A stretch of DNA of 64,000 nucleotides, taken from assembly GCA_031412295.1 (NCBI GenBank), contig JANOCU010000032.1, forward strand, positions 66,956 through 130,955. Direction: 5' to 3'. Position 1 is the first letter of the stretch; each line of letters begins with the position of its first letter. This document shows, piece after piece, positions 9,813 to 51,572 of the stretch. Origin of the DNA: Bacteroidota bacterium (GTDB lineage: Bacteria; Bacteroidota; Bacteroidia; Palsa-965). A model generated the notes under the pieces. That model did no database searches. It had not been told where the DNA came from and worked only from the letters and a program-made list of their open reading frames with translations. The position numbers and the translations under genes were made by a program.

Positions 9813-9885
9813 GCCGGTGTAGCTCAGCTGGTAGAGCAGCTGATTTGTAATCAGCAGGTCGGAGGTTCGAATCCCTTCGCCGGCT
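9813..9885 (+). tRNA. tRNA-Thr (anticodon TGT)
   Basis: The acceptor stem GCCGGTG pairs with CGCCGGC. D arm is GCTCAGCTGGTAGAGC. Anticodon stem-loop is GCTGA-TTTGTAA-TCAGC. T loop is TTCGAAT. Confidence 0.8.
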
Positions 9886-9960
9886 CATTTTTTTTATTAA
9901 AAATGAATCAAATAATTGTCACAGGGGAGGCTAAGGATATCAGCTTCATCAATGGCTTCG

Positions 9961-10042
9961 GGGGAGATACTCAAGCGGCCAACGAGGACAGACTGTAAAT
10001 CTGTTGACTTAGTCTTCACAGGTTCGAATCCTGTTCTCCCCA
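9961..10042 (+). tRNA. tRNA-Tyr (anticodon GTA)
   Basis: The acceptor stem GGGGAGA pairs with TCTCCCC. Anticodon loop is CTGTAAA. The long variable arm is typical of tRNA-Tyr. Confidence 0.85.
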
Positions 10043-10109
10043 CACATCCACCCGGCTTGGGTGGATACCTGCAAGGCAAATGCAGTAGTAATCGGAAGAT
10101 AAAAATTAA

Positions 10110-10182
10110 GCGGAAGTAGCTCATTTGGTAGAGCGATAGCCTTCCAAGCTATAGGTGGCCGGTTCGAGCCCGGTCTTCCGCT
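10110..10182 (+). tRNA. tRNA-Gly (anticodon TCC)
   Basis: The acceptor stem GCGGAAG pairs with CTTCCGC. The anticodon stem-loop is ATAGC-CTTCCAA-GCTAT. Confidence 0.85.
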
Positions 10183-10304
10183 CAAAATAAAAAGAGCACG
10201 GCACGTCCAACGAAGCTTCAGCGCAGTTGGATCTTCCGCTCAAAAGAAAAGTTATCCCGAAAGGGAAAAGTGAAAATAGAAGTCCATTGCATCTCCTGAT
10301 CATC

Positions 10305-10376
<72 letters not shown>

Positions 10377-10506: not shown

Positions 10507-11694
10507 ATGGCAAAAGAAAAATTTGACCGCTCCAAACCACACGTGAACGTTGGTACCATCGGTCACGTTGACCACGGTAAGACAACACTTACTGCTGCAA
10601 TCACAACTGTACTTGCATCTAAAGGTCTCGCGGAAATCCGCGACTTTTCGTCAATCGATAACGCTCCTGAAGAAAAAGCACGTGGGATCACAATTAATAC
10701 ATCACACGTTGAATACTCAACTGCTGCGCGTCACTACGCTCACGTAGATTGTCCTGGTCACGCTGACTATGTAAAAAACATGGTTACAGGTGCTGCCCAA
10801 ATGGACGGTGCTATCCTTGTTGTAGCTGCAACAGATGGTCCTATGCCACAAACACGTGAGCATATCCTTCTTGCTCGCCAGGTTGGTGTTCCTGAACTTG
10901 TTGTGTTCATGAACAAAGTTGATATGGTTGATGATCTTGAGCTTCTTGATCTCGTTGAGATGGAGATCCGTGATCTTCTTGTGTTCTACAAATTCGATGG
11001 AACAAAAACTCCGATCATTCGTGGATCTGCACTTGGCGGATTGAATCAGGAGCCGAAATGGGTTGAGAAAATCATGGAATTGATGGATGCTGTGGATACT
11101 TATATCCCGACTCCTACACGTGATAAAGACAAGCCTTTCCTGATGTCTGTTGAGGACGTTTTCACAATCACAGGTCGTGGAACAGTTGCAACTGGTCGTA
11201 TCGAAACCGGCGTTGTAAACGTTGGTGAAGATGTTGAGATCATCGGAATGCAAGAGGAAAAACTCAAATCAACCTGCACAGGTGTTGAGATGTTCCGTAA
11301 GCTTCTTGATCGCGGCGAAGCTGGTGACAACGTTGGTCTTCTCCTTCGTGGTATTGATAAAGATGCAATCCGTCGTGGTATGGTTATCGCGAAACCGGGT
11401 TCTATCACACCTCACCACGATTTCAAAGCTGAGATCTACGTTCTTAAAAAAGAAGAAGGTGGCCGTCACACGCCATTCCACAATAAATACCGTCCACAGT
11501 TCTACTTCCGTACAACAGATGTAACAGGAGAAATCGAACTTCCGGAAGGACGCGAAATGGTAATGCCTGGTGATAACGTTACAATCACAGTTAAATTGAT
11601 TGTTCCGATCGCTATGGATAAAGGTCTTCGTTTCGCGATCCGCGAAGGTGGCCGTACTGTTGGCGCTGGCCAGGTAACTGAAATTCTTAAATAA
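10507..11694 (+). CDS. tuf: Translation elongation factor Tu
   Basis: 395 aa. [18 protein letters not shown] and NKVD are the G-domain motifs. Confidence 0.97.
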
Positions 11695-11820: not shown

Positions 11821-11891
11821 ACGGGAATAGTTCAATGGTAGAATAGCGGTCTCCAAAACCGTTGATCTTGGTTCGAGTCCAGGTTCCCGTG
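11821..11891 (+). tRNA. tRNA-Trp (anticodon CCA)
   Basis: The acceptor stem ACGGGAA pairs with TTCCCGT. The anticodon stem-loop is GCGGT-CTCCAAA-ACCGT. T loop is TTCGAGT. Confidence 0.85.
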
Positions 11892-15191: not shown

Positions 15192-18100
15192 TTGTTGCTT
15201 ACAGTGCCTTTATTTTCACGCATTAATTCCGAAGCTTTGGAAACGACCAAAAAACAGCAACGCATAAGTTTTGCAAAGAGCAAAGCGCAAATCGATTATC
15301 CGGATTTCCTGGATATTCAGCTGAAATCCTTCCAGGATTTCTTCCAGTTAGAAACCACCAGCGAAAATCGTCAGGACGAAGGTCTGTTCAAAGTATTCAG
15401 TGAGAATTTTCCTATCACTGATGCCCGCAACAACTTCGTGCTCGAATTCCTGGATTATTTTGTTGATCCGCCGCGCTACTCAATTGATGAGTGTATCGAG
15501 CGTGGACTAACTTACAGTGTTCCGCTTAAAGCGAAATTGCGTCTGTATTGTACAGACCCTGAACACGAAGATTTCGAAACAATCGTGCAGGATGTGTACC
15601 TGGGAACAATCCCGTACATGACCCCGCGCGCTACTTTCGTTATTAATGGCGCTGAACGTGTTATCGTATCGCAGCTGCACCGTTCACCTGGTGTATTCTT
15701 CGGACAATCACGCCACGCTAACGGAACAAAGCTTTATTCTGCCCGTGTAATTCCTTTCAAAGGTTCATGGATCGAATTTGCCACTGACATTAATAACGTC
15801 ATGTATGCATACATCGACCGTAAGAAAAAATTACCGGTTACAACTCTCCTCCGCGCAATCGGTTGGGAAAGTGATAAGCAGATCCTCGAACTTTTCGGTC
15901 TTGCCGATGAAGTGAAAGTTTCTAAAGCAGCTTTAAAAGCAGTGATCGGCCGTAAATTGGCTGCTCGTGTTTTGAAAACATGGGTAGAAGATTTCGTTGA
16001 TGAAGATACCGGTGAAGTTGTGTCAATCGAGCGTAACGAGGTTATCATCGATCGCGAAACCATTCTTGAAAATCAGCATGTGGATCTGATCGTTGACGCC
16101 AACGTAAAATCTGTCATCCTGCACAAAGAAGACGCCGCAAATCTTGATTATTCTATCATCTACAATACACTCCAAAAGGATACTTCGAATTCTGAGAAGG
16201 AAGCCGTGGAGCATATCTACCGTCAGCTTCGTAACGCTGAACCACCGGATGAAGAAACTGCCCGTGGAATTATCGACAAGCTTTTCTTCTCTGACAAACG
16301 TTATGATCTTGGAGAAGTTGGTCGTTACCGTATCAACAGAAAGTTAAAAGCAAGCACATCTTCTGAAACACGCGTTCTTACAAAAGATGATATCATCGCG
16401 ATCATTAAATATCTCATCGAGCTTATTAACTCGAAAGCAGATGTCGATGATATCGATCACTTGTCAAACCGTCGTGTACGTACTGTAGGCGAACAATTGT
16501 ATTCTCAGTTCGGAGTTGGTCTTGCCCGTATGGCACGTACCATCCGTGAGCGTATGAACGTTCGTGACAATGAAGTGTTCACACCAACAGATTTGATCAA
16601 CGCGAAGACACTTTCTTCCGTTATCAATTCGTTCTTCGGAACCAACCAGCTTTCACAGTTTATGGATCAGACCAACCCGTTGGCAGAGATCACGCACAAG
16701 CGTCGTCTCTCCGCACTCGGGCCTGGAGGTCTTTCACGTGAGCGCGCAGGATTCGAAGTTCGTGACGTTCACTATACGCACTACGGACGTCTTTGCACTA
16801 TTGAAACACCAGAGGGACCAAACATCGGTCTTATCTCTTCACTTTGCGTTTATGCGAAGATCAACAAGCTTGGATTTATCGAAACACCTTACCGTACAGT
16901 AACAAATGGTAAGATCGATATCAACAAGCCTGTTATCTACTTAACAGCAGAAGAAGAGGATATGCGTACCATCGCTCAGGCAAATGCTGAGACAGATGAC
17001 AAAGGAAACTTCATCGAGAAACGTATCAAAGCGCGTTACGAATCGGATTACCCGGTTGTAGAGCCTGAGCAAATTTCTTTGATGGACGTTGCTCCGAACC
17101 AGATCGCTTCTATTGCGGCTTCTTTGATTCCTTTCCTTGAGCATGATGATGCTAACCGTGCTCTTATGGGCTCGAACATGCAACGCCAGGCTGTACCACT
17201 TCTTCGTCCGGAAGCTCCGATTGTCGGAACCGGTCTTGAAGGATTGATCGCGCGTGACTCACGTGTGTTGTGGCAGGCTGAAGGTGAAGGTGTAGTTGAA
17301 TACGCTGACGCAACAGAGATCACGATCCGTTACAATCGTACAGATAAAGATCGTCTCGTTTCTTTCGACGACGATTTGAAAACATACAAGCTCACGAAAT
17401 TCCGCAAAACCAACCAGAGCACTTGTGTCAACCTTCGCCCTATGGTGAAAAAAGGAGACAAAGTGAAAAACGGTCAGATCCTCTGTGAAGGTTATGCAAC
17501 GAAAGACGCTGAAGTAGCATTGGGAAGAAACCTGAAAGTGGCTTTCATGCCATGGAAAGGTTACAACTTCGAGGATGCTATCGTTATCAGCGAACGCGTT
17601 GTGCGTGATGATATCTTCACTTCCCTTCACATTGATGAATACGTGATGGAAGTGCGTGATACAAAACGTGGTCTTGAAGAATTAACCGCAGACATTCCGA
17701 ACGTTTCTGAAGAGGCTACAAAAGACCTTGATGAAAACGGATTGATCCGCGTTGGTGCTGAAGTGAAAGAAGGAGATATTCTTATCGGAAAGATCACACC
17801 GAAAGGTGAAACAGATCCTTCTCCGGAAGAAAAGCTTCTGCGCGCGATCTTCGGCGATAAAGCAGGTGATGTAAAAGATGCTTCGTTGAAAGTTCCACCA
17901 TCCATTCGTGGTGTGATCATCGACAAAAAACTTTTCTCACGCGCTATCAAAGACAAAAAAGCGAAAGCTGATGAGAAAACACTGGTTGAGAAAATCGACA
18001 AAGAAGAAGCAGTTGAAGCAGCAGCTTTGAAAGCAGTTCTTGTTGAGAAGCTCACATCAATCCTCAGCGGAAAATCTACTCCGGGTGTATTCAGCAACCT

Positions 18101-19046
18101 CAAAGAAGAGGTAGTTGAAAAAGGAACAAAGTTCACCGGAAAAGTGCTTGAAAAAATCGATTTCGCTAACGTAAATCCATCTAAATGGACAAACGATAAC
18201 GACACTAACGATCTTGTAAAAGCAGTGCTTCACAACTTCAACATCAAGAACAATGATCTTGGTGGTGTGTACAAGCGTAAGAAATTCGCTTTACAGGTTG
18301 GTGATGAATTGCCAGCAGGAATTGTTCAGCTTGCTAAAGTTTACATCGCGAAAAAACGTAAGCTGAAAGTGGGAGATAAAATGGCCGGCCGTCACGGAAA
18401 CAAAGGTATCGTTGCGCGTATTGTACGTGATGAAGATATGCCGTTCCTTGATGATGGATCGACTGTGGATATCGTCCTCAATCCGCTTGGTGTACCATCG
18501 CGTATGAACCTTGGACAGATCTATGAAACTGTACTTGGCTGGGCCGGTATGAAGCTTGGTTTGAAATTCGGCACGCCGATTTTCGACGGAGCAACTATTG
18601 ACGAGATTAATGCATACACTGATAAAGCTGGTCTGCCACGTTTTGGCCGTACCTTCTTAACAGACGGCGGATCGGGAGAACCTTTCGATCAACCGGCTAC
18701 TGTTGGTGTGATTTACATGCTGAAGCTCGGTCACATGGTTGACGACAAAATGCACGCACGTTCAATCGGACCATACTCGCTCATCACTCAGCAGCCGCTT
18801 GGTGGTAAGGCACAGTTCGGTGGTCAGCGTTTCGGAGAGATGGAAGTTTGGGCACTCGAAGCATTCGGTGCAGCGAACATCCTCCAGGAAATTCTGACAA
18901 TCAAGTCTGATGACGTAGTAGGCCGTGCAAAAGCTTACGAAGCAATTGTTAAGGGTGAGAATATGCCAACACCTGGCATCCCGGAATCATTCAACGTATT
19001 GTTGCATGAGCTTCGCGGTCTTGCGCTCAACGTCAGCCTCGACTAA
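15192..19046 (+). CDS. rpoB: DNA-directed RNA polymerase subunit beta; the start is uncertain, TTG at 15192 or GTG at 15204
   Basis: About 1,280 aa. [48 protein letters not shown] and [18 protein letters not shown] are rpoB motifs. Confidence 0.97.
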
Positions 19047-19094
19047 TTTCAACCGATTCAGTTTTTATTTTCACGAACGAAAACAAAACAAAAC

Positions 19095-22000
19095 ATGTCT
19101 TTCCGAAAAGATATCAAAATAAAAAGTAACTTCTCTACGATCACGATCAGCCTGGCTTCCCCGGAATCCATCCTTGAGCGTTCGAGCGGTGAAGTGCTTA
19201 AACCGGAGACTATCAATTACCGTACTTACAAACCTGAACGCGATGGTTTGTTCTGCGAGAGGATCTTCGGACCAGTGAAAGACTGGGAGTGCCATTGCGG
19301 TAAATACAAACGTATCCGGTACAAAGGAATCGTTTGCGATCGTTGCGGTGTTGAAGTAACAGAGAAAAAAGTACGTCGTGAGCGCATGGGTCATATCAAT
19401 TTGACTGTGCCTGTTGCTCACATCTGGTACTTCCGTTCTTTGCCAAACAAAATCGGTTACCTGTTAGGTCTTCCTACAAAGAAGCTTGACATGATCATTT
19501 ACTACGAGCGTTATGTAGTAATCAACGCCGGTATCAAAGGTGAAGACGGAATTCAGTACATGGACTTTTTAACAGAAGAACAGTACTTAGAGATCCTTGA
19601 CACACTTCCAAAAGAAAATCTTCACCTCGATGACATGGACCCTAATAAGTTCGTGGCGCGTATGGGTGCAGAAGCGTTGTATGATTTATTGCAGCGCACA
19701 AAATTGGATGAGCTTTCTTACGACTTACGTCACAAAGCAAATACAGAAACTTCACAGCAGCGTAAAAACGAGGCGCTCAAACGTCTCCAGGTTGTTGAAG
19801 CATTCCGCCAGGCAAACAAACACGTTGAAAATCGTCCTGAATGGATGATCATCAAAGTTGTTCCTGTTATTCCACCGGAGCTTCGTCCACTCGTTCCGTT
19901 AGATGGCGGACGTTTCGCTACTTCTGATTTGAACGATTTGTATCGCCGTGTGATCATTCGTAACAATCGTCTTAAGCGTCTTATCGAAATCAAAGCTCCT
20001 GACGTAATTCTCCGTAACGAGAAACGTATGTTGCAGGAAGCTGTCGATTCATTATTCGATAACTCACGTAAATCAAACGCTGTAAAAACAGAATCAAACC
20101 GCGCCCTCAAATCGCTGTCTGATTCCCTCAAAGGAAAACAAGGCCGGTTCCGTCAGAATTTGCTCGGAAAACGTGTCGATTATTCTGCGCGTTCGGTTAT
20201 CGTCGTTGGACCGGAATTAAAATTACATGAGTGTGGTTTGCCAAAAGATATGGCAGCCGAGCTTTTCAAACCGTTTATCATTCGCAAGCTCATCGAGCGT
20301 GGAATCGTGAAAACAGTTAAGTCAGCGAAGAAAATCGTTGACAGAAAAGATGCAGTTGTTTGGGATATCCTCGAGAATGTACTTCGCGGACACCCGGTCC
20401 TTCTGAATCGTGCTCCAACACTTCACAGGTTAGGTATCCAGGCTTTCCAGCCAAAACTGATCGAAGGAAAAGCGATCCAGCTTCACCCACTCGTTTGTAC
20501 AGCGTTCAACGCCGATTTCGATGGTGACCAGATGGCGGTGCACGTTCCGTTAGGAAATGCAGCTATTCTTGAAGCGCAGATTTTGATGCTTGCTTCACAT
20601 AACATTCTTAACCCTGCGAATGGTGCGCCGATTGCGGTTCCATCACAAGACATGGTACTTGGTCTGTATTACATGACCAAAGGAATGCGCACAGATAAAA
20701 TCGTTACTGTAAAAGGTGAAGGTTTGAAATTCTACAGCGCTGAAGAAGCAATTATCGCTTACAACGAAGGACGCGTTCAGCTCCATGCATGGGTGCACGT
20801 GAAAATTCAGAATCACAAAGAAGGCGACAATCTTTTGCCTAAAGTGATCGAAACAACAATGGGTCGTATCATCTTCAACCAGGTTGTGCCTTTCGAAGCA
20901 GGTTATATCAATGAGCTTCTTACGAAAAAATCGCTGCGTGATATTATCGGAGCGATCGTGAAAGAAACAGGTATGGCTAAAACAGCTAAGTTCCTCGATG
21001 ATATCAAAGAACTTGGTTTCCGTATGGCGTTCAAAGGTGGACTTTCGTTCAACCTTGGTGACATCATCGTTCCGGAAGAAAAGCCGCAAATGATCAAAGC
21101 TGCTAACGAACAGGTTGAGGAAGTCAGATCAAATTACAACCTTGGTTTCATTACCAACAACGAGCGTTACAACCAGATCATTGACATCTGGACACATACA
21201 AACAATAAAATCACGAAACGTGTACTTGACCAATTGTCATCAGATCGCCAGGGCTTCAACCCGGTGTATATGATGCTTGATTCCGGTGCGCGTGGATCTA
21301 AAGAGCAGATCAAACAGCTCGGCGGAATGCGTGGACTGATGGCAAAGCCGTCAAAGGCAGGTTCATCAGGCGGGGAGATCATCGAGAATCCCGTTATCTC
21401 CAACTTCAAAGAAGGTCTGTCAATTCTTGAGTACTTCATCTCCACTCACGGTGCGCGTAAAGGTCTTGCCGATACTGCTCTTAAAACAGCGGATGCGGGT
21501 TACCTCACACGTCGTCTCGTTGACGTTGCACAGGATGTTGTAATCACAGAAGAAGATTGCGGAACACTTCGCGGACTCATTGCAGTTCCGTTGAAGAAAA
21601 ATGAAGAGGTTGTAGAATCATTGCACGATCGTATTCTTGGTCGCACAGCGGTTCATGATGTATACGATCCACAAACAGGCGATCTTATTATCGAATCAGG
21701 TTCTGAGATCACTGAAGGTTATGCAATGCTTATTGATAACACAGCAATCGAATCTGTTGAGATCCGTTCGGTACTTACCTGCGAATCGAAACAAGGTGTT
21801 TGCGGAAAATGCTACGGACGTAATCTTGCATCGGGCCGCATGGTTCAGCAGGGTGAAGCTGTTGGTGTTATCGCAGCGCAATCAATCGGTGAGCCGGGTA
21901 CACAGCTTACACTTCGTACCTTCCACGTTGGAGGAACTGCGTCGAGTATCGCTGCTGCTTCTAAACTCGAAGCGAAATACGACGGTATCATCGAGATCGA

Positions 22001-23390
22001 AGAGCTTCGTACTGTAAAACGTAAGAATGCAGAAGGAAATATGGTTGATGTTGTTATCGGCCGTTCTGCTGAGATGCGTATCATCGATACCAATACAAAG
22101 ATCGTTCTTACCACAGGTAACGTTCCTTACGGTTCACAGCTTTATGTGAAAAACGGGCAGAACGTGAAGAAGAATGAAGTGATCTGCGATTGGGATCCTT
22201 ACAATGCGGTTATCGTTTCTGAATTCGGTGGTAAGCTTGAATTCGAACATATCGAAGAAGGTGTTACTTTCCGTGAAGAGTCTGATGAGCAAACCGGATT
22301 TGCTGAGAAAGTAATTATCGAAACAAAAGATAAAACGAAGAATCCTTCTATCCGCATCATGGGTGGAAGCGATATCCTGAAAAACTATAACCTTCCTGTG
22401 GCTGCGCATATCGTTGTTGACAATGGTGCGAAGATCGAACCGGGTCAGATCCTGGTTAAGATCCCACGTGCTCTTGGAAAACAAGGTGATATTACAGGAG
22501 GTCTTCCACGTGTAACTGAATTGTTCGAAGCACGTAATCCTTCGAATCCTGCAGTTGTTTCTGAAATTGACGGTGTTGTTACTTTCGGAAAGATCAAACG
22601 TGGTAACCGTGAAGTTATGGTTGAGTCACGCACAGGGGAGCGCAAAACATATCTTGTTCCGTTATCAAAACATATTCTCGTACAGGAAAATGACTTCGTC
22701 CGCGCAGGAGAAGCATTATCTGATGGATCAATTTCGCCTGGTGATATCCTCGCGATCAAAGGACCAACAGCAGTACAGGAATATCTTGTTAACGAGGTGC
22801 AGGAAGTTTACCGTTTGCAGGGTGTAAAAATCAATGACAAACATTTTGAAGTAATCGTTCGTCAGATGATGCGCAAAGTGGATATCGTTGATCCGGGTGA
22901 TACAATTTTCCTTGAGACACAGTTGGCAAACAAAGCTGACTTCATGGAAGAGAACGATCGTCTCTACGGCAAAAAAGTTGTTGTTGAACCTGGTGATTCA
23001 CAAAGTCTCAAAGCAGGACAAATCATTTCCGCACGTAAATTGCGCGATGAGAATTCCATGTTGAAACGTAAAGATCAGAAGCAGGTTGAGGCACGTGATG
23101 CTGTTCCTGCAACATCTTCACAGATTCTTCAAGGTATCACACGTGCATCGTTACAGACTAACTCTTGGGTATCAGCTGCTTCCTTCCAGGAAACAACAAA
23201 AGTCCTCAACGAAGCTGCTGTCAACGGAAAAGTGGATATCCTCAACGGACTCAAGGAAAACGTTATTGTTGGTCACCTTATTCCAGCCGGAACAGGTCAC
23301 CGCACTTACGAAAAGCTTGTGGTTGGTTCGAAAGACGAATACGAAAAGCTCCTCGCTGCGAAAAAAGAAGCGATGGAAGAAGAAGCATAA
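19095..23390 (+). CDS. rpoC: DNA-directed RNA polymerase subunit beta prime
   Basis: 1,431 aa. The zinc-binding motif is [23 protein letters not shown]. The catalytic motif is [12 protein letters not shown]. The C-terminal domains are present. Confidence 0.97.
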
Positions 23391-40333: not shown

Positions 40334-40474
40334 AGAAAAGTTGTCAGATGCCAGTTGTCAGTTGTCAATTGTCAGACAAAATAACAGGGAAAGAATTACG
40401 AATCCTCGAATAAGAAATAGTACACAGGTACCTTTCGTATATTCGTTTTCATTCGTAATTCGTCCCCTTTCTAT

Positions 40475-46339: not shown

Positions 46340-47656
46340 ATGAGAAACCAACGATCAAACGGAAGCTCTTCTTCACAAAACAGTGAAAGAGGTTCACATG
46401 GCCAGGACAAAAGCCATGGCAACAGAAATACCTATTCCAATTCATTCGGTAATTCAAGACAAGAAAGGAATTCACATAGCGGGTACAATGAAAATGATCA
46501 GCGCAGTTCACGTTATGGTTCGAACAATGAAACAGGTCAGTACAGAAGAGATGAAAATCCGCGCGGACGTTCTATTGACCAGGACGACCGAAATAACAGG
46601 AATAATAATTCGCGTAATTCAGAACACGGCAACTCACGCGGCGGATCAAATCAAAATGATAATCGCAGCTCACGAAATAATTCAACGAATGCAGGTTCCG
46701 CTTCCCGGAATTCTCAGGGTGGACAGGGGAATTCACGCAGTCGCTACCAGCGCGATGACGATACTAATAGTGCACGCTATAACTCATCATCCGGTTCAGG
46801 TAATTCTTCCGGCAGGGGAGGAAATCAACGCGACGAGCGCAGCGCACGATATGGCAATGCAGGGAATTCCGGTCAATACGGAAATCAAGGTGGCGGACGT
46901 TACGACAGTGATTTGAGCTCACGTCGCAGCTTCAATGATTTTGAAGATGATGATCGTGAATCAAGAGAAGAAGATTTCGATTCCTTCTATGAAAATGATT
47001 CACGCAGTCACGCATTCGATAGGAATTCGCAGAATCGTTCCGGCCAGGGAAACAATCGCAATTCCTCCTACAACGATCATGATGCGCGCGGCTCATATGA
47101 TGACGACGATGATGACGATTTCGAAGACGATATCGAGAATGAATACGAAGATGATTCAGACGACGAGCAATCCGGCCACGGATATTCATCACGGGGAAAT
47201 AATTCGCACGGTAACAATTCTTATGGAAGAGAAAATTCATCGCGTGGAAATAATTCGGGCTCATCATATGAAAGAGAAAATTCATCGCGAGGAAATAATT
47301 CCGGTTCATACTACGGAGGCGGCAATTTTTCACGAAATAATTCGGGTTCATCGTACGGCGGAGAAAACAATTCACGTGGAAATAATTCCGGCTCATCATA
47401 TGGAAGAGAAAATACATCCCGCGGAAATAATAATCCCGGTTCATCCTACGGAGGAGGAAATAATTCGCGCGGAAATAATTCCGGTTCATCTTATCGTGGA
47501 GAAAGCTTTTCAGGAAAGGGCTTTTATGCCACTCCCGACGAACAAACCGGCGTAAGCAATTCAAATTTGTCAGGAGGAGATTATGATGATGACAGCTCCT
47601 CTAACGGCAGCCAACACACCGGCTCCCGCAACTCCCGCTCAACACGAGAGTGGTAG
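46340..47656 (+). CDS. Low-complexity N/S/G/R-rich intrinsically disordered protein with an acidic core; hydrophilin-like
   Basis: 438-aa ORF. The acidic block is DDDDDDDFEDDIENEYEDDSDDEQ. It is followed by degenerate 15-aa repeats such as SSYGRENSSRGNNSG. A perfect terminator hairpin lies 25 nt downstream. Alternative-frame ORFs in the same region are likely repeat artefacts. Confidence 0.5.
   Translation: MRNQRSNGSSSSQNSERGSHGQDKSHGNRNTYSNSFGNSRQERNSHSGYNENDQRSSRYGSNNETGQYRRDENPRGRSIDQDDRNNRNNNSRNSEHGNSRGGSNQNDNRSSRNNSTNAGSASRNSQGGQGNSRSRYQRDDDTNSARYNSSSGSGNSSGRGGNQRDERSARYGNAGNSGQYGNQGGGRYDSDLSSRRSFNDFEDDDRESREEDFDSFYENDSRSHAFDRNSQNRSGQGNNRNSSYNDHDARGSYDDDDDDDFEDDIENEYEDDSDDEQSGHGYSSRGNNSHGNNSYGRENSSRGNNSGSSYERENSSRGNNSGSYYGGGNFSRNNSGSSYGGENNSRGNNSGSSYGRENTSRGNNNPGSSYGGGNNSRGNNSGSSYRGESFSGKGFYATPDEQTGVSNSNLSGGDYDDDSSSNGSQHTGSRNSRSTREW
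47185..47520 (+). repeat. Degenerate 45-nt tandem repeats, about 7 copies, inside the low-complexity ORF
   Basis: The peptide period RGNNSGSSYGRENSS is repeated. Confidence 0.6.
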
Positions 47657-47680
47657 AAAATTAAAATTCGTCATATAAAA

Positions 47681-47716
47681 AGAGACGGCAGGAATTTTTT
47701 CCTGCCGTCTCTTTTT
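47681..47716 (+). terminator. Rho-independent terminator
   Basis: AGAGACGGCAGG, loop AATTTTTT, then CCTGCCGTCTCT followed by TTTTT. Confidence 0.75.
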
Positions 47717-47730
47717 AATTCAATCGCTAC

Positions 47731-47775
47731 CTTTTGTCAGACTGAGTAACGAAGTGTATCGAAGGCTGACAAAAG
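47731..47775. repeat. Palindromic repeat element, copy 1 (45 nt)
   Basis: CTTTTGTCAG, then ACTGAGTAACGAAGTGTATCGAAGG, then CTGACAAAAG. Confidence 0.8.
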
Positions 47776-47789
47776 ATAGAGATTGAATG

Positions 47790-48096
47790 TTATTTCTTTT
47801 TGGCCCTTGGCTTCTTCTTTGAAAGGGCAGGTAATTTTTCTTCTTGTCCATTAATTAACGCTTCCTTTTTTGCACGCGACCACCCCTTAAGTTGTTTCTC
47901 ACGTGCAATAGCAAGATTTACATATTTAAAATCTTCCCACCAAACTAAATGAACCGGCCTGCGATCTGCAGTATTACGAACCTTCATTAATTCCTTCCTC
48001 ATGCTGTTCAAATCTCAGGTCAAGATTATTCGTCATTCCAACATAATAAGAATCAGCAGCGCAAAGTAAAATGTAAGTAAAGTAACGATCTTTCAT
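47790..48096 (-). pseudogene. GIY-YIG nuclease-family small protein gene disrupted by a frameshift
   Basis: The N-terminal part runs 48096 to 47974 and reads MKDRYFTYILLCAADSYYVGMTNNLDLRFEQHEEGINEGS then stop. The C-terminal part is in another frame and reads ...KVRNTADRRPVHLVWWEDFKYVNLAIAREKQLKGWSRAKKEALING. Together they match the about 100-aa GIY-YIG family, whose typical sequence is Y.YIL...G..YIG.T.DL.RR..EHN.G...YT...RPW.LVY.E.F.....A..RE.Q.KGWSR.KK. The frames differ by one nt near 47975..48000. Confidence 0.6.
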
Positions 48097-48252
48097 AGCT
48101 TATAATTAACAATCATTTATCAGACGAATTAACGAAAAGTTTCAAAACAAATAAATGCTTTAAGAAATCATTCTTCGTTTTTTTTCTCAGACTAAGCTGT
48201 GAAAATTATCGAATACGGCTAAATAATATCAATGAAGAGAATCCCTAAATTC

Positions 48253-48277
48253 CTTTTGTCAGACTGAGTAGCGAGTA
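48253..48277. repeat. Palindromic repeat element, truncated copy (left arm and part of the loop)
   Basis: CTTTTGTCAGACTGAGTAGCGAG, then divergent sequence. Its upstream flank AATAATATCAATGAAGAGAATCCCTAAATTCC resembles the flank of copy 4 (AATAGTATCAATGAAGAAGTTCACATAGTAGC). Confidence 0.6.
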
Positions 48278-48318
48278 ACAACGAATCAAATCAAATAATT
48301 CCAAGAAAATGTCCCCAC

Positions 48319-48373
48319 AGTTCCTTTTGTCAGACTGAGTAGCGAAGCGTATCGAAGGCTGACAAAAGGAACT
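48319..48373. repeat. Palindromic repeat element, copy 3, with an extended stem
   Basis: AGTTCC-CTTTTGTCAG-ACTGAGTAGCGAAGCGTATCGAAGG-CTGACAAAAG-GGAACT. Confidence 0.8.
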
Positions 48374-48454
48374 AGCGCAATATTACTTTTTGTCACCGTG
48401 AATATCAAAGTTGCCCGAAGAGCACCAAATAGTATCAATGAAGAAGTTCACATA

Positions 48455-48507
48455 GTAGCTTTTGTCAGACTGAGTAGCGAAGCGTATCGAAGGCTGACAA
48501 AAGCTAC
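48455..48507. repeat. Palindromic repeat element, copy 4, with an extended stem; it abuts the stop codon of the CBS gene
   Basis: GTAGC-CTTTTGTCAG-ACTGAGTAGCGAAGCGTATCGAAGG-CTGACAAAAG-GCTAC. The 45-nt core is identical to copy 3, but the flanking 5 to 6 nt differ and remain complementary. Confidence 0.8.
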
Positions 48508-49886
48508 TAGCACAACGCCTTTATTATATCATGCCGCGTAATAATAAAATTCGAATCCGTTTTAAAATCCCTCACCAGCACAGCAGGATTTTCAGGCGTG
48601 ATCATCGACGCGAGCGATTCAACAGGAGTAGAAATATCCACGAATGGAAAAGCCGCCTGCATGATCGTTTCAACAGCATCCGATTTTTTATCCGGATTTT
48701 TCACAAGACTGTCGAACAATTGCATTTCGTTTATCGATCCCACAATTCTTCCGCCGTTTGTTACAGGCATTTGAGAAAAATCATTTTCACGCATTATTTT
48801 CACCGCGCGTTCTATCGGCTCAGTACATTCAATCGCTTTTAAAGTTCCGCCTTTGATCGTCGATACCACATCTTTCGCAGTCTGACCTTTCGGCTCAAAA
48901 AATCCTTTCTCACGCATCCAGTCGTCGTTGAACATTTTTCCAAGGTAACGTGTACCGTGATCATGGAAAATTACAACAGCCAGGTCACCTTCTTTCAGCT
49001 GCGCTGCCAATTGAACAACACCCGCCATTGCAGAACCTGCAGAATTCCCTGCAAAAATTCCTTCTTCTTTCGAAATGCGGCGTGTCATCACAGCAGCATC
49101 TTTATCCGTTACTTTTTCAAACAAATCAATAATGCTGAAGTCAACATTCTGCGGCAAAAAATCTTCCCCGATTCCTTCTGTGATGTAAGGGTAAATTTCA
49201 TTCTTATCGAAAATGCCGGTCTCTTTATATTTTTTGAAAATAGATCCGTACGTATCAATTCCCCAGCATTTAATATTCGGATTTTTCTCTTTCAGATATT
49301 TTCCTGTTCCGCAAATTGTTCCGCCCGTTCCAACGCCAACAATCAAATGCGTAATTTTTCCTTCCGTCTGTTCCCAAATTTCCGGACCCGTTTGCTCATA
49401 ATGCGCCTGCGAATTCGAAAGATTATCATACTGGTTTGGCTTCCACGAATTCGGAACTTCTTTTATCAAACGTGAAGAAACAGAATAATAAGAACGCGGA
49501 TCTTCCGGATCAACGTTGGTCGGACAAACAATTACTTCCGCACCAAAAGCCTTCAGCGCATCCACTTTTTCTTTCGACTGTTTATCAGTAGTAGTAAAAA
49601 TGCATTTGTAACCCTTAATGATCGCCGCAATCGCCAACCCCATTCCTGTATTACCCGAAGTGCCTTCAATAATTGTTCCTCCCGGCTTCAGTCTTCCGTC
49701 CTTTTCAGCATCCTCAATCATCTTGAGCGCCATTCTGTCTTTAATAGAATTACCCGGATTAAAAGTTTCAATCTTGGCGTAAACTTTCGCTTTCGTCAGC
49801 CCTTTGGTAAGGTTATTAATACGCACCAGCGGAGTATTTCCGATTGTACCGAGAACGTTGTCGTAAACTTGTTTGGAAGGATTCAC
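48507..49886 (-). CDS. Cystathionine beta-synthase-like enzyme: PLP-dependent cysteine-synthase fold plus a C-terminal CBS-domain pair
   Basis: 459 aa. The cysK/CBS catalytic core is GNTPLVRINNL...KIETFNPGNSIKDRMALKMIEDAEKDGRLKPGGTIIEGTSGNTGMGLA. C-terminal tandem CBS domains are present. It probably uses a GTG start. Confidence 0.7.
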   Translation of the reverse strand: MNPSKQVYDNVLGTIGNTPLVRINNLTKGLTKAKVYAKIETFNPGNSIKDRMALKMIEDAEKDGRLKPGGTIIEGTSGNTGMGLAIAAIIKGYKCIFTTTDKQSKEKVDALKAFGAEVIVCPTNVDPEDPRSYYSVSSRLIKEVPNSWKPNQYDNLSNSQAHYEQTGPEIWEQTEGKITHLIVGVGTGGTICGTGKYLKEKNPNIKCWGIDTYGSIFKKYKETGIFDKNEIYPYITEGIGEDFLPQNVDFSIIDLFEKVTDKDAAVMTRRISKEEGIFAGNSAGSAMAGVVQLAAQLKEGDLAVVIFHDHGTRYLGKMFNDDWMREKGFFEPKGQTAKDVVSTIKGGTLKAIECTEPIERAVKIMRENDFSQMPVTNGGRIVGSINEMQLFDSLVKNPDKKSDAVETIMQAAFPFVDISTPVESLASMITPENPAVLVRDFKTDSNFIITRHDIIKALC

Positions 49887-51485: not shown

Positions 51486-51540
51486 TTTTTGCACGTTATT
51501 TGCTAATTCAATAACTGACTGACTACTGACTATTGACAAC

Positions 51541-51572
51541 TTTTTTTTCACCACCAACCACCAACCTTTTTT
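51541..51572. repeat. Inverted partner of the 51414..51485 repeats
   Basis: TTTTTTTTCACCACCAACCACCAACCTTTTTT is the reverse complement of AAAAGGTTGGTGGTTGGTGGTGAA. Confidence 0.7.

Follow-up and report, generated by a model that had tools for sequence, protein, structure and literature searches.

Ssn enzymes, the family defined by cd10448 in CDD, are small single-domain GIY-YIG nucleases whose genes are flanked by cognate hairpin repeats (SRM/NTS) (Chenal et al., Nat Commun 2025, PMC11893778). They bind their own repeat as single-stranded DNA (ssDNA), on one strand only, and nick it a few nucleotides 5'; RNA and double-stranded DNA are ignored, a characterised homologue has no RNA binding, the loop sequence is not essential, and a repeat lies nearby in 71% of Ssn homologues, the other 29% having no recognised SRM (PMC11893778). 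Here we analyse a locus in a 64,000-nt stretch of contig JANOCU010000032.1 from a Bacteroidota bacterium (the window), where a frameshifted GIY-YIG gene is set among copies of a palindromic element. We put at about 0.78 the probability that this locus is a decaying Ssn/SRM-type module, with an Ssn-related nuclease and with the elements as its cognate recognition repeats. The case is built on what we observe of the anatomy, covariation and strand asymmetry of the element, its dispersal, its association with the gene, the vertical inheritance of that gene, and the homology of its product to repeat-flanked GIY-YIG proteins. On this reading, the repeat is a previously uncatalogued Bacteroidota version of the Ssn-associated hairpin repeats. 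An earlier note on this DNA, made from the sequence alone, did not know of such an arrangement being described; Ssn nucleases with their SRM/NTS repeats had in fact already been published (PMC11893778). The kind of system has been described since 2025, and what is new here is how the repeat is built, which phyla host it and the rule that its polarity follows.

The authors of the Ssn study themselves draw the analogy with repetitive extragenic palindromes (REPs) and RAYT (PMC11893778). Also relevant are the CGTC/TGTC-tagged REPs of Di Nocera, De Gregorio and Rocco (BMC Genomics 2013, PMC3733652). That paper reports them from five phyla, Bacteroidetes and Chlorobi among them, where most copies form inverted dimers and lie downstream of genes. 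It describes an unpaired tag, an 8-9-bp stem starting with A-T, a 4-5-nt loop and a CCA tail, and gives Neisseria dRS3 and Rickettsia RPE-4/6 as examples.

Compared with the Ssn systems, the window has a single-domain GIY-YIG protein of the same size (about 100 aa) with similar catalytic spacing, encoded by a gene that is likewise flanked by its own hairpin repeat; like SRM/NTS, the repeat is multi-copy, intergenic and directional, its apical loop is free to vary, and, to judge from sequence evidence, one DNA strand folds. The window repeat differs from SRM as follows: its conserved core is a tandem G·A core (CTGAG/CGAAG) and not a G+C-rich Watson-Crick palindrome; its loop is enlarged to UA-G[hairpin of 5-60 nt]C-GUAU; and its TGTC head is paired to a CTGACA tail in solitary copies. 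The hosts differ too, being Bacteroidota and Ignavibacteriota known as metagenome-assembled genomes (MAGs).

Anatomy and folding of the element

Coordinates below are positions in the 64-kb window; L labels denote related loci or contigs, and P labels denote orthologous proteins in the comparison set. Between 47718 and 48509 the window carries three intact copies of the element, one truncated and one degenerate, all on the + strand and in one orientation. Copy c1 (core 47731-47775, extended stem 47718-47788) has the apical mini-hairpin ACGAAGT and a 23-bp locus-specific outer stem with two mismatches; c3 (core 48324-48368, stem 48319-48373) has the apical mini-hairpin GCGAAGC and a perfect 15-bp outer stem, AGTTCCTTTTGTCAG/CTGACAAAAGGAACT; and c4 (core 48459-48503, stem 48453-48509) has a perfect 16-bp outer stem. 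The truncated copy c2 (48250-48275; CCTTTTGTCAGACTGAGTAGCGA) retains only the 5' arm and the 5' half of the core. These three full copies and the truncated one lie where the earlier note had placed them, and the core halves (18-20 nt) are unique to this region: they occur four and three times in 64 kb, all within it, against 0.00 and 0.09 matches expected in shuffles, and the observed count was reached in 0/100. The degenerate fifth copy (48181-48226; TTTTCTCAGACTAAGCTGTGAAAATTATCGAATACGGCTAAATAA) aligns with a score of 39.5, the null maximum over ~3000 random windows being 31, and has lost folding (z −0.55); the intact copies c1, c3 and c4 out-fold shuffles with z −4.3 to −5.8, c1 folding at −27.4 kcal/mol (z −5.8). 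One copy lies 3' of the GIY-YIG gene and four lie 5' of it. The tail of c1 points to the stop codon of this gene, its stem ending 2 nt short of that stop, and c4 runs with its 3' arm into the stop codon of the neighbouring CBS gene (48507-48509), as had been noticed before.

Comparison of the P0001 locus with the more distant P0003, P0004, P0006 and P0007 loci revealed a conserved core that reads (TGT)CAGACTGAGTA-G[variable hairpin]C-GTATCGAAG and frequently runs on into (G/T)CTGACA. The element had first been described as a 10-bp stem around a conserved 25-nt loop: the palindrome is there, but the conserved portion is the supposed loop, not the stem, and it encloses a variable apical hairpin of which the window has the minimal form, GCGAAGC. 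The two "loop" changes of c1 (ACGAAGT) amount to a compensatory change from G-C to A-T in the apical closing pair. Over all loci we found 78 different apical hairpins, 7-59 nt long and falling into recurrent types; nearly all apical stems begin right after GAGTA and finish right before GTATCG. The TGTCAG head is invariant in 23/23 aligned copies; where a copy is solitary, this head pairs with the CTGACA tail. About half of 105 unique copies have an outer stem that is closed and specific to the locus. By their sequence, the conserved strands can form the pairs C-G, U-A, G·A, A·G and G-C, with G·A/A·G in tandem. In three genomes the element lies near homologous, possibly orthologous, open reading frames (ORFs) (L027 3321-3361, L033 1631-1657 and L055 819-853), and the differing apical hairpins at these sites (21, 7 and 15 nt) suggest apical-module replacement or gene conversion. 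In L002 (4322-4540), 92-nt tandem units have GTATCG swapped for another hairpin (TCCCGATCACAATCGGGA).

The flanks that extend the outer stem are specific to each copy and complementary within it: AGTTCC/GGAACT in c3, GTAGC/GCTAC in c4, and the mismatch-bearing 23-bp stem in c1. The proposal that such flanks differ between copies and yet stay complementary under selection is borne out by their recurrence in about half of the unique copies and by a covariation signal above that of 500/500 shuffles. When 23 copies that carry the minimal apical hairpin were aligned without gaps, stemless copies being included and two with a 3'-arm indel excluded, the outer helix was paired at 80.8%, compared to 64.3% after shuffling (0/500); outer-stem covariation was 0.441, compared to 0.162 after shuffling (0/500) and to 0.10-0.14 with a slid partner; both-sided changes occurred at eleven pairs; and the apical closing pair was GC in 16 copies, AU in 6 and GU in 1.

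The two strands are not equivalent. On the CAGACTGAGTA strand, ungapped apical stems contain 20 G·T and a single A·C beside 473 Watson-Crick pairs, and the outer stem mismatches comprise 43 G·T vs. 18 A·C; because symmetric mutation would give equal numbers of G·T and A·C, one strand is under selection to fold. Many apical caps are C(GNA)G triloops, GCGAAGC among them. The oligonucleotide d(GCGAAGC) forms an exceptionally stable DNA mini-hairpin, and C(GNA)G-type triloops fit DNA hairpins rather than RNA. The G·T/A·C asymmetry and the C(GNA)G caps point to a single-stranded DNA hairpin. One folding strand, DNA-type caps and a variable apex, as read from these alignments, agree with the biochemistry of Ssn (PMC11893778).

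The GIY-YIG gene and the dispersal of the repeat

The Ssn-like nuclease gene (47790-48096, − strand) carries a +1 frameshift that parts the two halves of its protein into two ORFs, each matching PF01541. The extra base lies in "TAAT" at ~47973-47976, and removing one base gives a 101-aa protein colinear with its homologues; the earlier observation of a frameshifted GIY-YIG gene bracketed by copies of the element is confirmed. PF01541 is the only domain found, and no additional DNA-binding domain is present; the intact orthologues listed are mostly 94-114 aa long, the closest being P0001 (88% identical). The columns of Y7, Y16/Y17, R27, H31 and E65 are invariant across 23 homologues, with spacing like that of Y6, Y17 and E64 of SsnA, which were mutated in PMC11893778. 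BLASTP gives 36-45% identity (E 1e-10 to 1e-15) between the protein and GIY-YIG ORFs that have matches to the published SRM pattern in their flanks, among them the ORF of L087, which has the exact Neisseria NTS consensus CGTCATTCCCGCGAAGGCGGGAATCCAG on both sides. We infer that the protein is probably a member of Ssn.

The gene is inherited vertically at a conserved locus of the window's lineage, CBS - GIY-YIG - Peripla_BP_2 - patatin. The CBS gene (48507-49886, − strand; cystathionine-beta-synthase-like, with PALP and CBS domains) is the conserved upstream neighbour of the nuclease gene and serves as the synteny anchor; it is outside the system. The position just after the CBS stop is occupied by an element in 7/7 related lineages compared. 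The flanking genes, CBS included, have diverged to 81-90% nucleotide identity, while the core is invariant. P0007 sits at another locus, with elements around it likewise.

All GIY-YIG genes of the clade that we examined (45-100% identity) have elements close by, 1-10 of them within ~400 bp and in most cases on either side, and orthologues or paralogues of the clade with nearby elements come from at least ten lineages and at least four different genomic loci; both-sided repeats are found also at L002, L012, L019, L020, L025, L039, L053 and L060. The commonest layout places the gene within a head-to-head doublet; elsewhere it lies between doublets. Within 800 bp of the elements, no protein family but GIY-YIG recurs from one non-syntenic locus to another, and the suggestion of a REP-like family tied to a small GIY-YIG nuclease, in the manner of REP/RAYT, has thus held up. 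The further expectation, that GIY-YIG genes would be over-represented next to copies, is borne out to a degree that lies well outside chance, although most copies have no such neighbour: in a scan of one genome per species with a relaxed core, a GIY-YIG gene was present at 6/46 loci and missing at the other 40, with one gene-bearing locus per genome among the matches. Most copies lying away from the GIY-YIG gene is the usual pattern of REP/RAYT-type systems.

Related repeats accompany related genes further afield. The GIY-YIG genes of Empedobacter and Spirosoma are flanked by a compact motif, GTCA(C/T)-YCTGAGC-NTGT-CGAAGR; elements in the IMG/VR contigs L077 and L078 share the grammar of the window element, CCTCATCC-CGAGGAG-C[hairpin]G-CGTCTCGAGG-GACGAGG; and other IMG/VR contigs carry classic (C/T)GTCAT-stem-GNAA-stem-CCA repeats by their GIY-YIG genes. 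In this classic (C/T)GTCAT...CCA group we recognise the CGTC/TGTC-tagged REPs that Di Nocera et al. described in 2013.

The 46 loci of the genome scan come from ~15 MAGs of Bacteroidia, Flavobacteriales, Melioribacteraceae and Ignavibacteriales (Bacteroidota and Ignavibacteriota), with a few contigs binned as Actinomyces and with up to ~13 exact matches within one fragmented MAG. The relaxed-core scan of viral contigs gave no match; stricter scans demanding ATCGAANGNCTGACA found none in the viral or genome collections and two solitary copies only in the metagenome scan. Among copies scored for context, 106/114 are intergenic. Neighbouring copies form 19 head-to-head pairs (heads inside), 4 pairs with tails inside and 13 tandem pairs. 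The element has a strong polarity relative to genes: 41 GTATCGAAG tails and 9 heads come within 45 nt of the stop codon of a gene (p = 5.6e-6), often with 0-3 nt between the tail and TGA, TAA or TAG. ORFs were called crudely, which makes these orientation counts approximate; the bias is large nonetheless. This placement means that the folding strand is usually the template strand of the adjacent gene.

Local expansion is also seen: a 102-nt tandem unit is present in 3-5 copies downstream of the nuclease gene among strains of one lineage, L012-L018 (3313-3700 in L012), and the L014 and L015 scaffolds have runs of N at this array. Assemblies tend to break at the repeats: the Logan contig L001, the only other contig with the CBS gene, ends inside c4 (48471); the MAG contig L034 begins inside an array; and several IMG/VR contigs (L077-L080, L087) end beside the GIY-YIG gene. 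As a result, MAGs give copy numbers that are too low. At L026 (3525-3542), a compact motif, CCTTCGACAGGCTCAGG, lies in frame within a long ORF, presumably an aminoacyl-tRNA-synthetase gene to judge from its sequence, and encodes ...FDPSTGSGL...; this recalls the intragenic REP/RPE of Di Nocera et al.

Weighing the Ssn-type reading against its alternatives

The window element shares features with both REP groups introduced above. It forms a directional hairpin with a conserved 5' (C/T)GTC head, as do the 20-50-nt SRM/NTS repeats. As in the CGTC/TGTC-tagged REPs, a TGTC head is followed by a hairpin, most copies form inverted dimers downstream of coding regions, and some are intragenic (L026). 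In the window element the stem begins A-T, G-C, and the loop is replaced by the apical module. The window element differs from those REPs in its much larger apical region, its paired head and its lack of a CCA tail, and its dimers have their tags inside, whereas those of that paper have them mostly outside. The compact motifs of Empedobacter and Spirosoma agree with the stem and loop sizes given there, having an 8-bp stem starting A-T and a 5-nt loop. With REP/REPIN and RAYT, the locus has in common a single-copy, vertically inherited nuclease gene flanked by its own repeats, dispersed intergenic singlets and inverted doublets, a GTAG-like tetranucleotide 5' of the hairpin and, by analogy, possibly strand-specific recognition of an ssDNA hairpin. 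Unlike RAYT (Y1/HUH), a GIY-YIG nuclease is of unrelated fold and chemistry: it is hydrolytic and forms no covalent tyrosine intermediate, and strand transfer is therefore not expected.

Several observations weigh against an Ssn-type module. The published SRM pattern HGTCWYN(0-2)YYVSBRHN(0-5)WNVSBRGN(0-2)RNCYNB has no match in the window, in the Bacteroidota loci checked or in the Empedobacter and Spirosoma motifs; the same pattern script finds SRMs flanking the GIY-YIG genes of L083-L087. The TGTC heads face the gene here, whereas at the canonical Ssn loci L084-L087 they face outward. The nearest solved structures, 1ZG2 and 1YWL (36 and 32 bits), are named UPF0213, and the protein could accordingly sit in a sister clade of Ssn (cd10448); a search of NCBIfam gave no match to it. 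The nuclease gene in this window is a pseudogene. Finally, the orientation rule relative to neighbouring genes is unpredicted by the published model, and a role at the level of RNA or linked to transcription could lie behind it. With its frameshifted gene and two decayed copies, the module may be inactive in this genome, unless the frameshift is an assembly error.

Taking an Ssn-type module as the best explanation, we propose the following mechanism. Read on the + strand, the element consists of a TGTCAG head, the core ACTGAGTA ... GTATCGAAGG around a variable apical hairpin and, in solitary copies, a CTGACA tail; this tail closes the outer stem, which locus-specific complementary flanks lengthen. 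At its fixed locus (CBS - ssn - Peripla_BP_2) the nuclease gene is inherited vertically and has repeats around it, and further copies, single or as head-to-head doublets, are scattered intergenically, mostly just past stop codons, following the logic of REP/REPIN-RAYT. By analogy with the biochemistry of its homologues, the intact enzyme would bind the + strand hairpin as ssDNA and nick its variable 5' arm, and the freely variable apical hairpin would be tolerated because the enzyme does not read the loop. The same analogy suggests a role in the spreading of the repeat or in ssDNA restriction.

Beyond this, we consider a stronger and, on balance, doubtful proposal: that the locus represents a second Ssn recognition architecture, in which the core is a tandem G·A, the apical hairpin can expand and the published SRM pattern finds no match, together with two properties so far unreported for Ssn, strict polarity and stem extensions copied by fold-back, all three jointly. 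Speculatively, complementary locus-specific arms might arise when an ssDNA hairpin cut by the nuclease primes synthesis on its own 5' flank; such fold-back priming could be the trace that a hydrolytic GIY-YIG enzyme leaves when it drives active, REPIN-like copying. Equally speculatively, the polarity relative to genes might reflect avoidance of a cleavable strand exposed in transcription bubbles. If true, strict polarity would mean that selection removes copies wherever the cleavable strand becomes exposed by transcription, or that insertion is directed to the ends of genes.

An Ssn-type module at this locus would matter for several reasons. Ssn enzymes are the first known site-specific nucleases that cut ssDNA only, and they are in development as tools, with specificity set by each enzyme-repeat pair; the window locus would define a pair that is invisible to the published SRM search motif, and would offer a recognition site whose core is non-Watson-Crick and whose apical hairpin can be replaced at will. 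It suggests that some of the 29% of Ssn homologues without a recognised SRM have unrecognised repeats. It would also extend the Ssn-type system to Bacteroidota and Ignavibacteriota, supply a candidate enzyme for the "orphan" CGTC/TGTC-tagged REPs described in 2013, and provide, in the polarity of the repeat at gene ends, a testable handle on cellular role outside naturally transformable Neisseria.

The alternative that survives best, which we nevertheless regard as improbable, is that the element is a structured RNA with CAGACUGAGUA polarity, transcribed in the same direction as its neighbouring genes or against them, the link with GIY-YIG being incidental or regulatory. Such an RNA could be a small RNA or a ribozyme-like motif, or it could act in the 3' untranslated region (UTR) as a stabiliser or a terminator. 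Conserved internal loops, covarying helices and an apical stem of variable length are the usual signature of an RNA motif, the strict polarity at gene 3' ends is what such a role would lead one to expect, and Di Nocera et al. argue that many REPs are transcribed (PMC3733652). Yet the strand that keeps its pairs (20 G·T vs. 1 A·C) is antisense to the adjacent gene, and hence outside the mRNA of that gene; doublets and solitary copies would yield RNAs of different topology; three-nucleotide caps, often C(GNA)G, are frequent and of a type suited to DNA hairpins; there is no conserved promoter upstream, where the 5' flank is a variable stem arm; and the characterised Ssn homologue does not bind RNA (PMC11893778). 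Nor does the element match an Rfam family: no hit reached the gathering threshold in the window, in the 1-kb region (searched at E up to 10), in 14 related loci, in the L026 doublet or in the Empedobacter and Spirosoma loci, and below threshold only generic miRNA-type hairpins matched by chance. Two specific RNA readings were rejected. An intrinsic terminator lacks support, with no T-run after the stem on either strand in c3, c4, L010 and L011; and a hammerhead-like reading of CUGAGUAG-[stem]-CGUAUCGAAG fails by inspection, the equivalent of G8 being U, a third helix being absent and no ribozyme model matching.

We think it quite unlikely that the element is an ordinary REP or MITE (miniature inverted-repeat transposable element) moved by another enzyme encoded elsewhere, such as a RAYT/IS200-type Y1 or other transposase, and that the GIY-YIG gene merely occupies a repeat-rich spot. 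The "GAGTAG + hairpin" arrangement does resemble the GTAG tag of RAYT-type REPs, the inverted doublets resemble REPINs, and such an enzyme would fit the 40/46 scan loci that have no GIY-YIG gene. Against this, within the 800 bp around the elements no transposase-like family recurs and no RAYT lies near any copy; the link to GIY-YIG recurs across phyla and at four or more unrelated loci, and the type of repeat changes from lineage to lineage; and Di Nocera et al. found no transposase, tyrosine transposase included, to go with CGTC-type REPs (PMC3733652). A homing endonuclease or an autonomous transposon with terminal inverted repeats is likewise unlikely: the gene is syntenic and vertically inherited, each genome among the matches had a single locus with the gene, and the layout around it is not fixed.

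Least probable by far is a purely local tandem duplication of an intergenic hairpin or terminator with no wider family or function, which would account for the spacing of ~71 nt or a multiple and the upstream sequence in common among copies between the GIY-YIG and CBS genes, and for the 3-5 copies of the 102-nt unit among the L012-L018 strains, but which is refuted as sole explanation by at least 46 unrelated loci in ~15 genomes that share the core, and by a core that stays invariant while the CBS gene is at 81-90% nucleotide identity, so that it explains the array and not the family.

Minor features of the window

A 438-aa ORF (46340-47656, + strand), rich in Ser, Asn, Gly, Arg and Asp and without a Pfam match, lies between the Peripla_BP_2 and nuclease genes; a coding tandem repeat of ~45 nt (SSYGxENxSRGNN; 47180-47524) is present in it six times, and the ORF is missing from the equivalent position in L012, L019, L025 and L053. 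Directly beside c1, a perfect 19-bp inverted repeat with a 4-nt loop (47676-47717) has A- and T-runs on either side; this hairpin has the look of a bidirectional terminator that serves the 46340-47656 ORF, and it does not belong to the element family. Within the CBS gene, a stretch at 48858-48884 (− strand) is element-like, with three mismatches in the two anchors and the same 7-nt spacing; being coding, it is probably due to chance.

TTGTCAG-like heptamers had also been pointed out at 40341-40377 and 51510-51546. They exist, but their alignment to the element does not rise above that of random windows, their scores being 23.5 and 20.5 against a null mean of 18.8 (sd 3.3); they form short intergenic tandem arrays containing GTCAG or GTCAC. 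At L048 (6520-6590), a (TGTCACC)n array directly adjoins a compact CCTGAGCCTGTCGAAGG motif, and a link to the TGTC head is possible there.

Elsewhere in the window, five tRNA genes (9813-10376 and 11821-11891) surround an ORF at 10507-11694 that we take from its position to be tuf, and the long ORFs at 15192-23390 are then presumably rpoB and rpoC. This stretch of tRNA genes and long ORFs is an ordinary conserved region, and it helps to place the organism in Bacteroidota.

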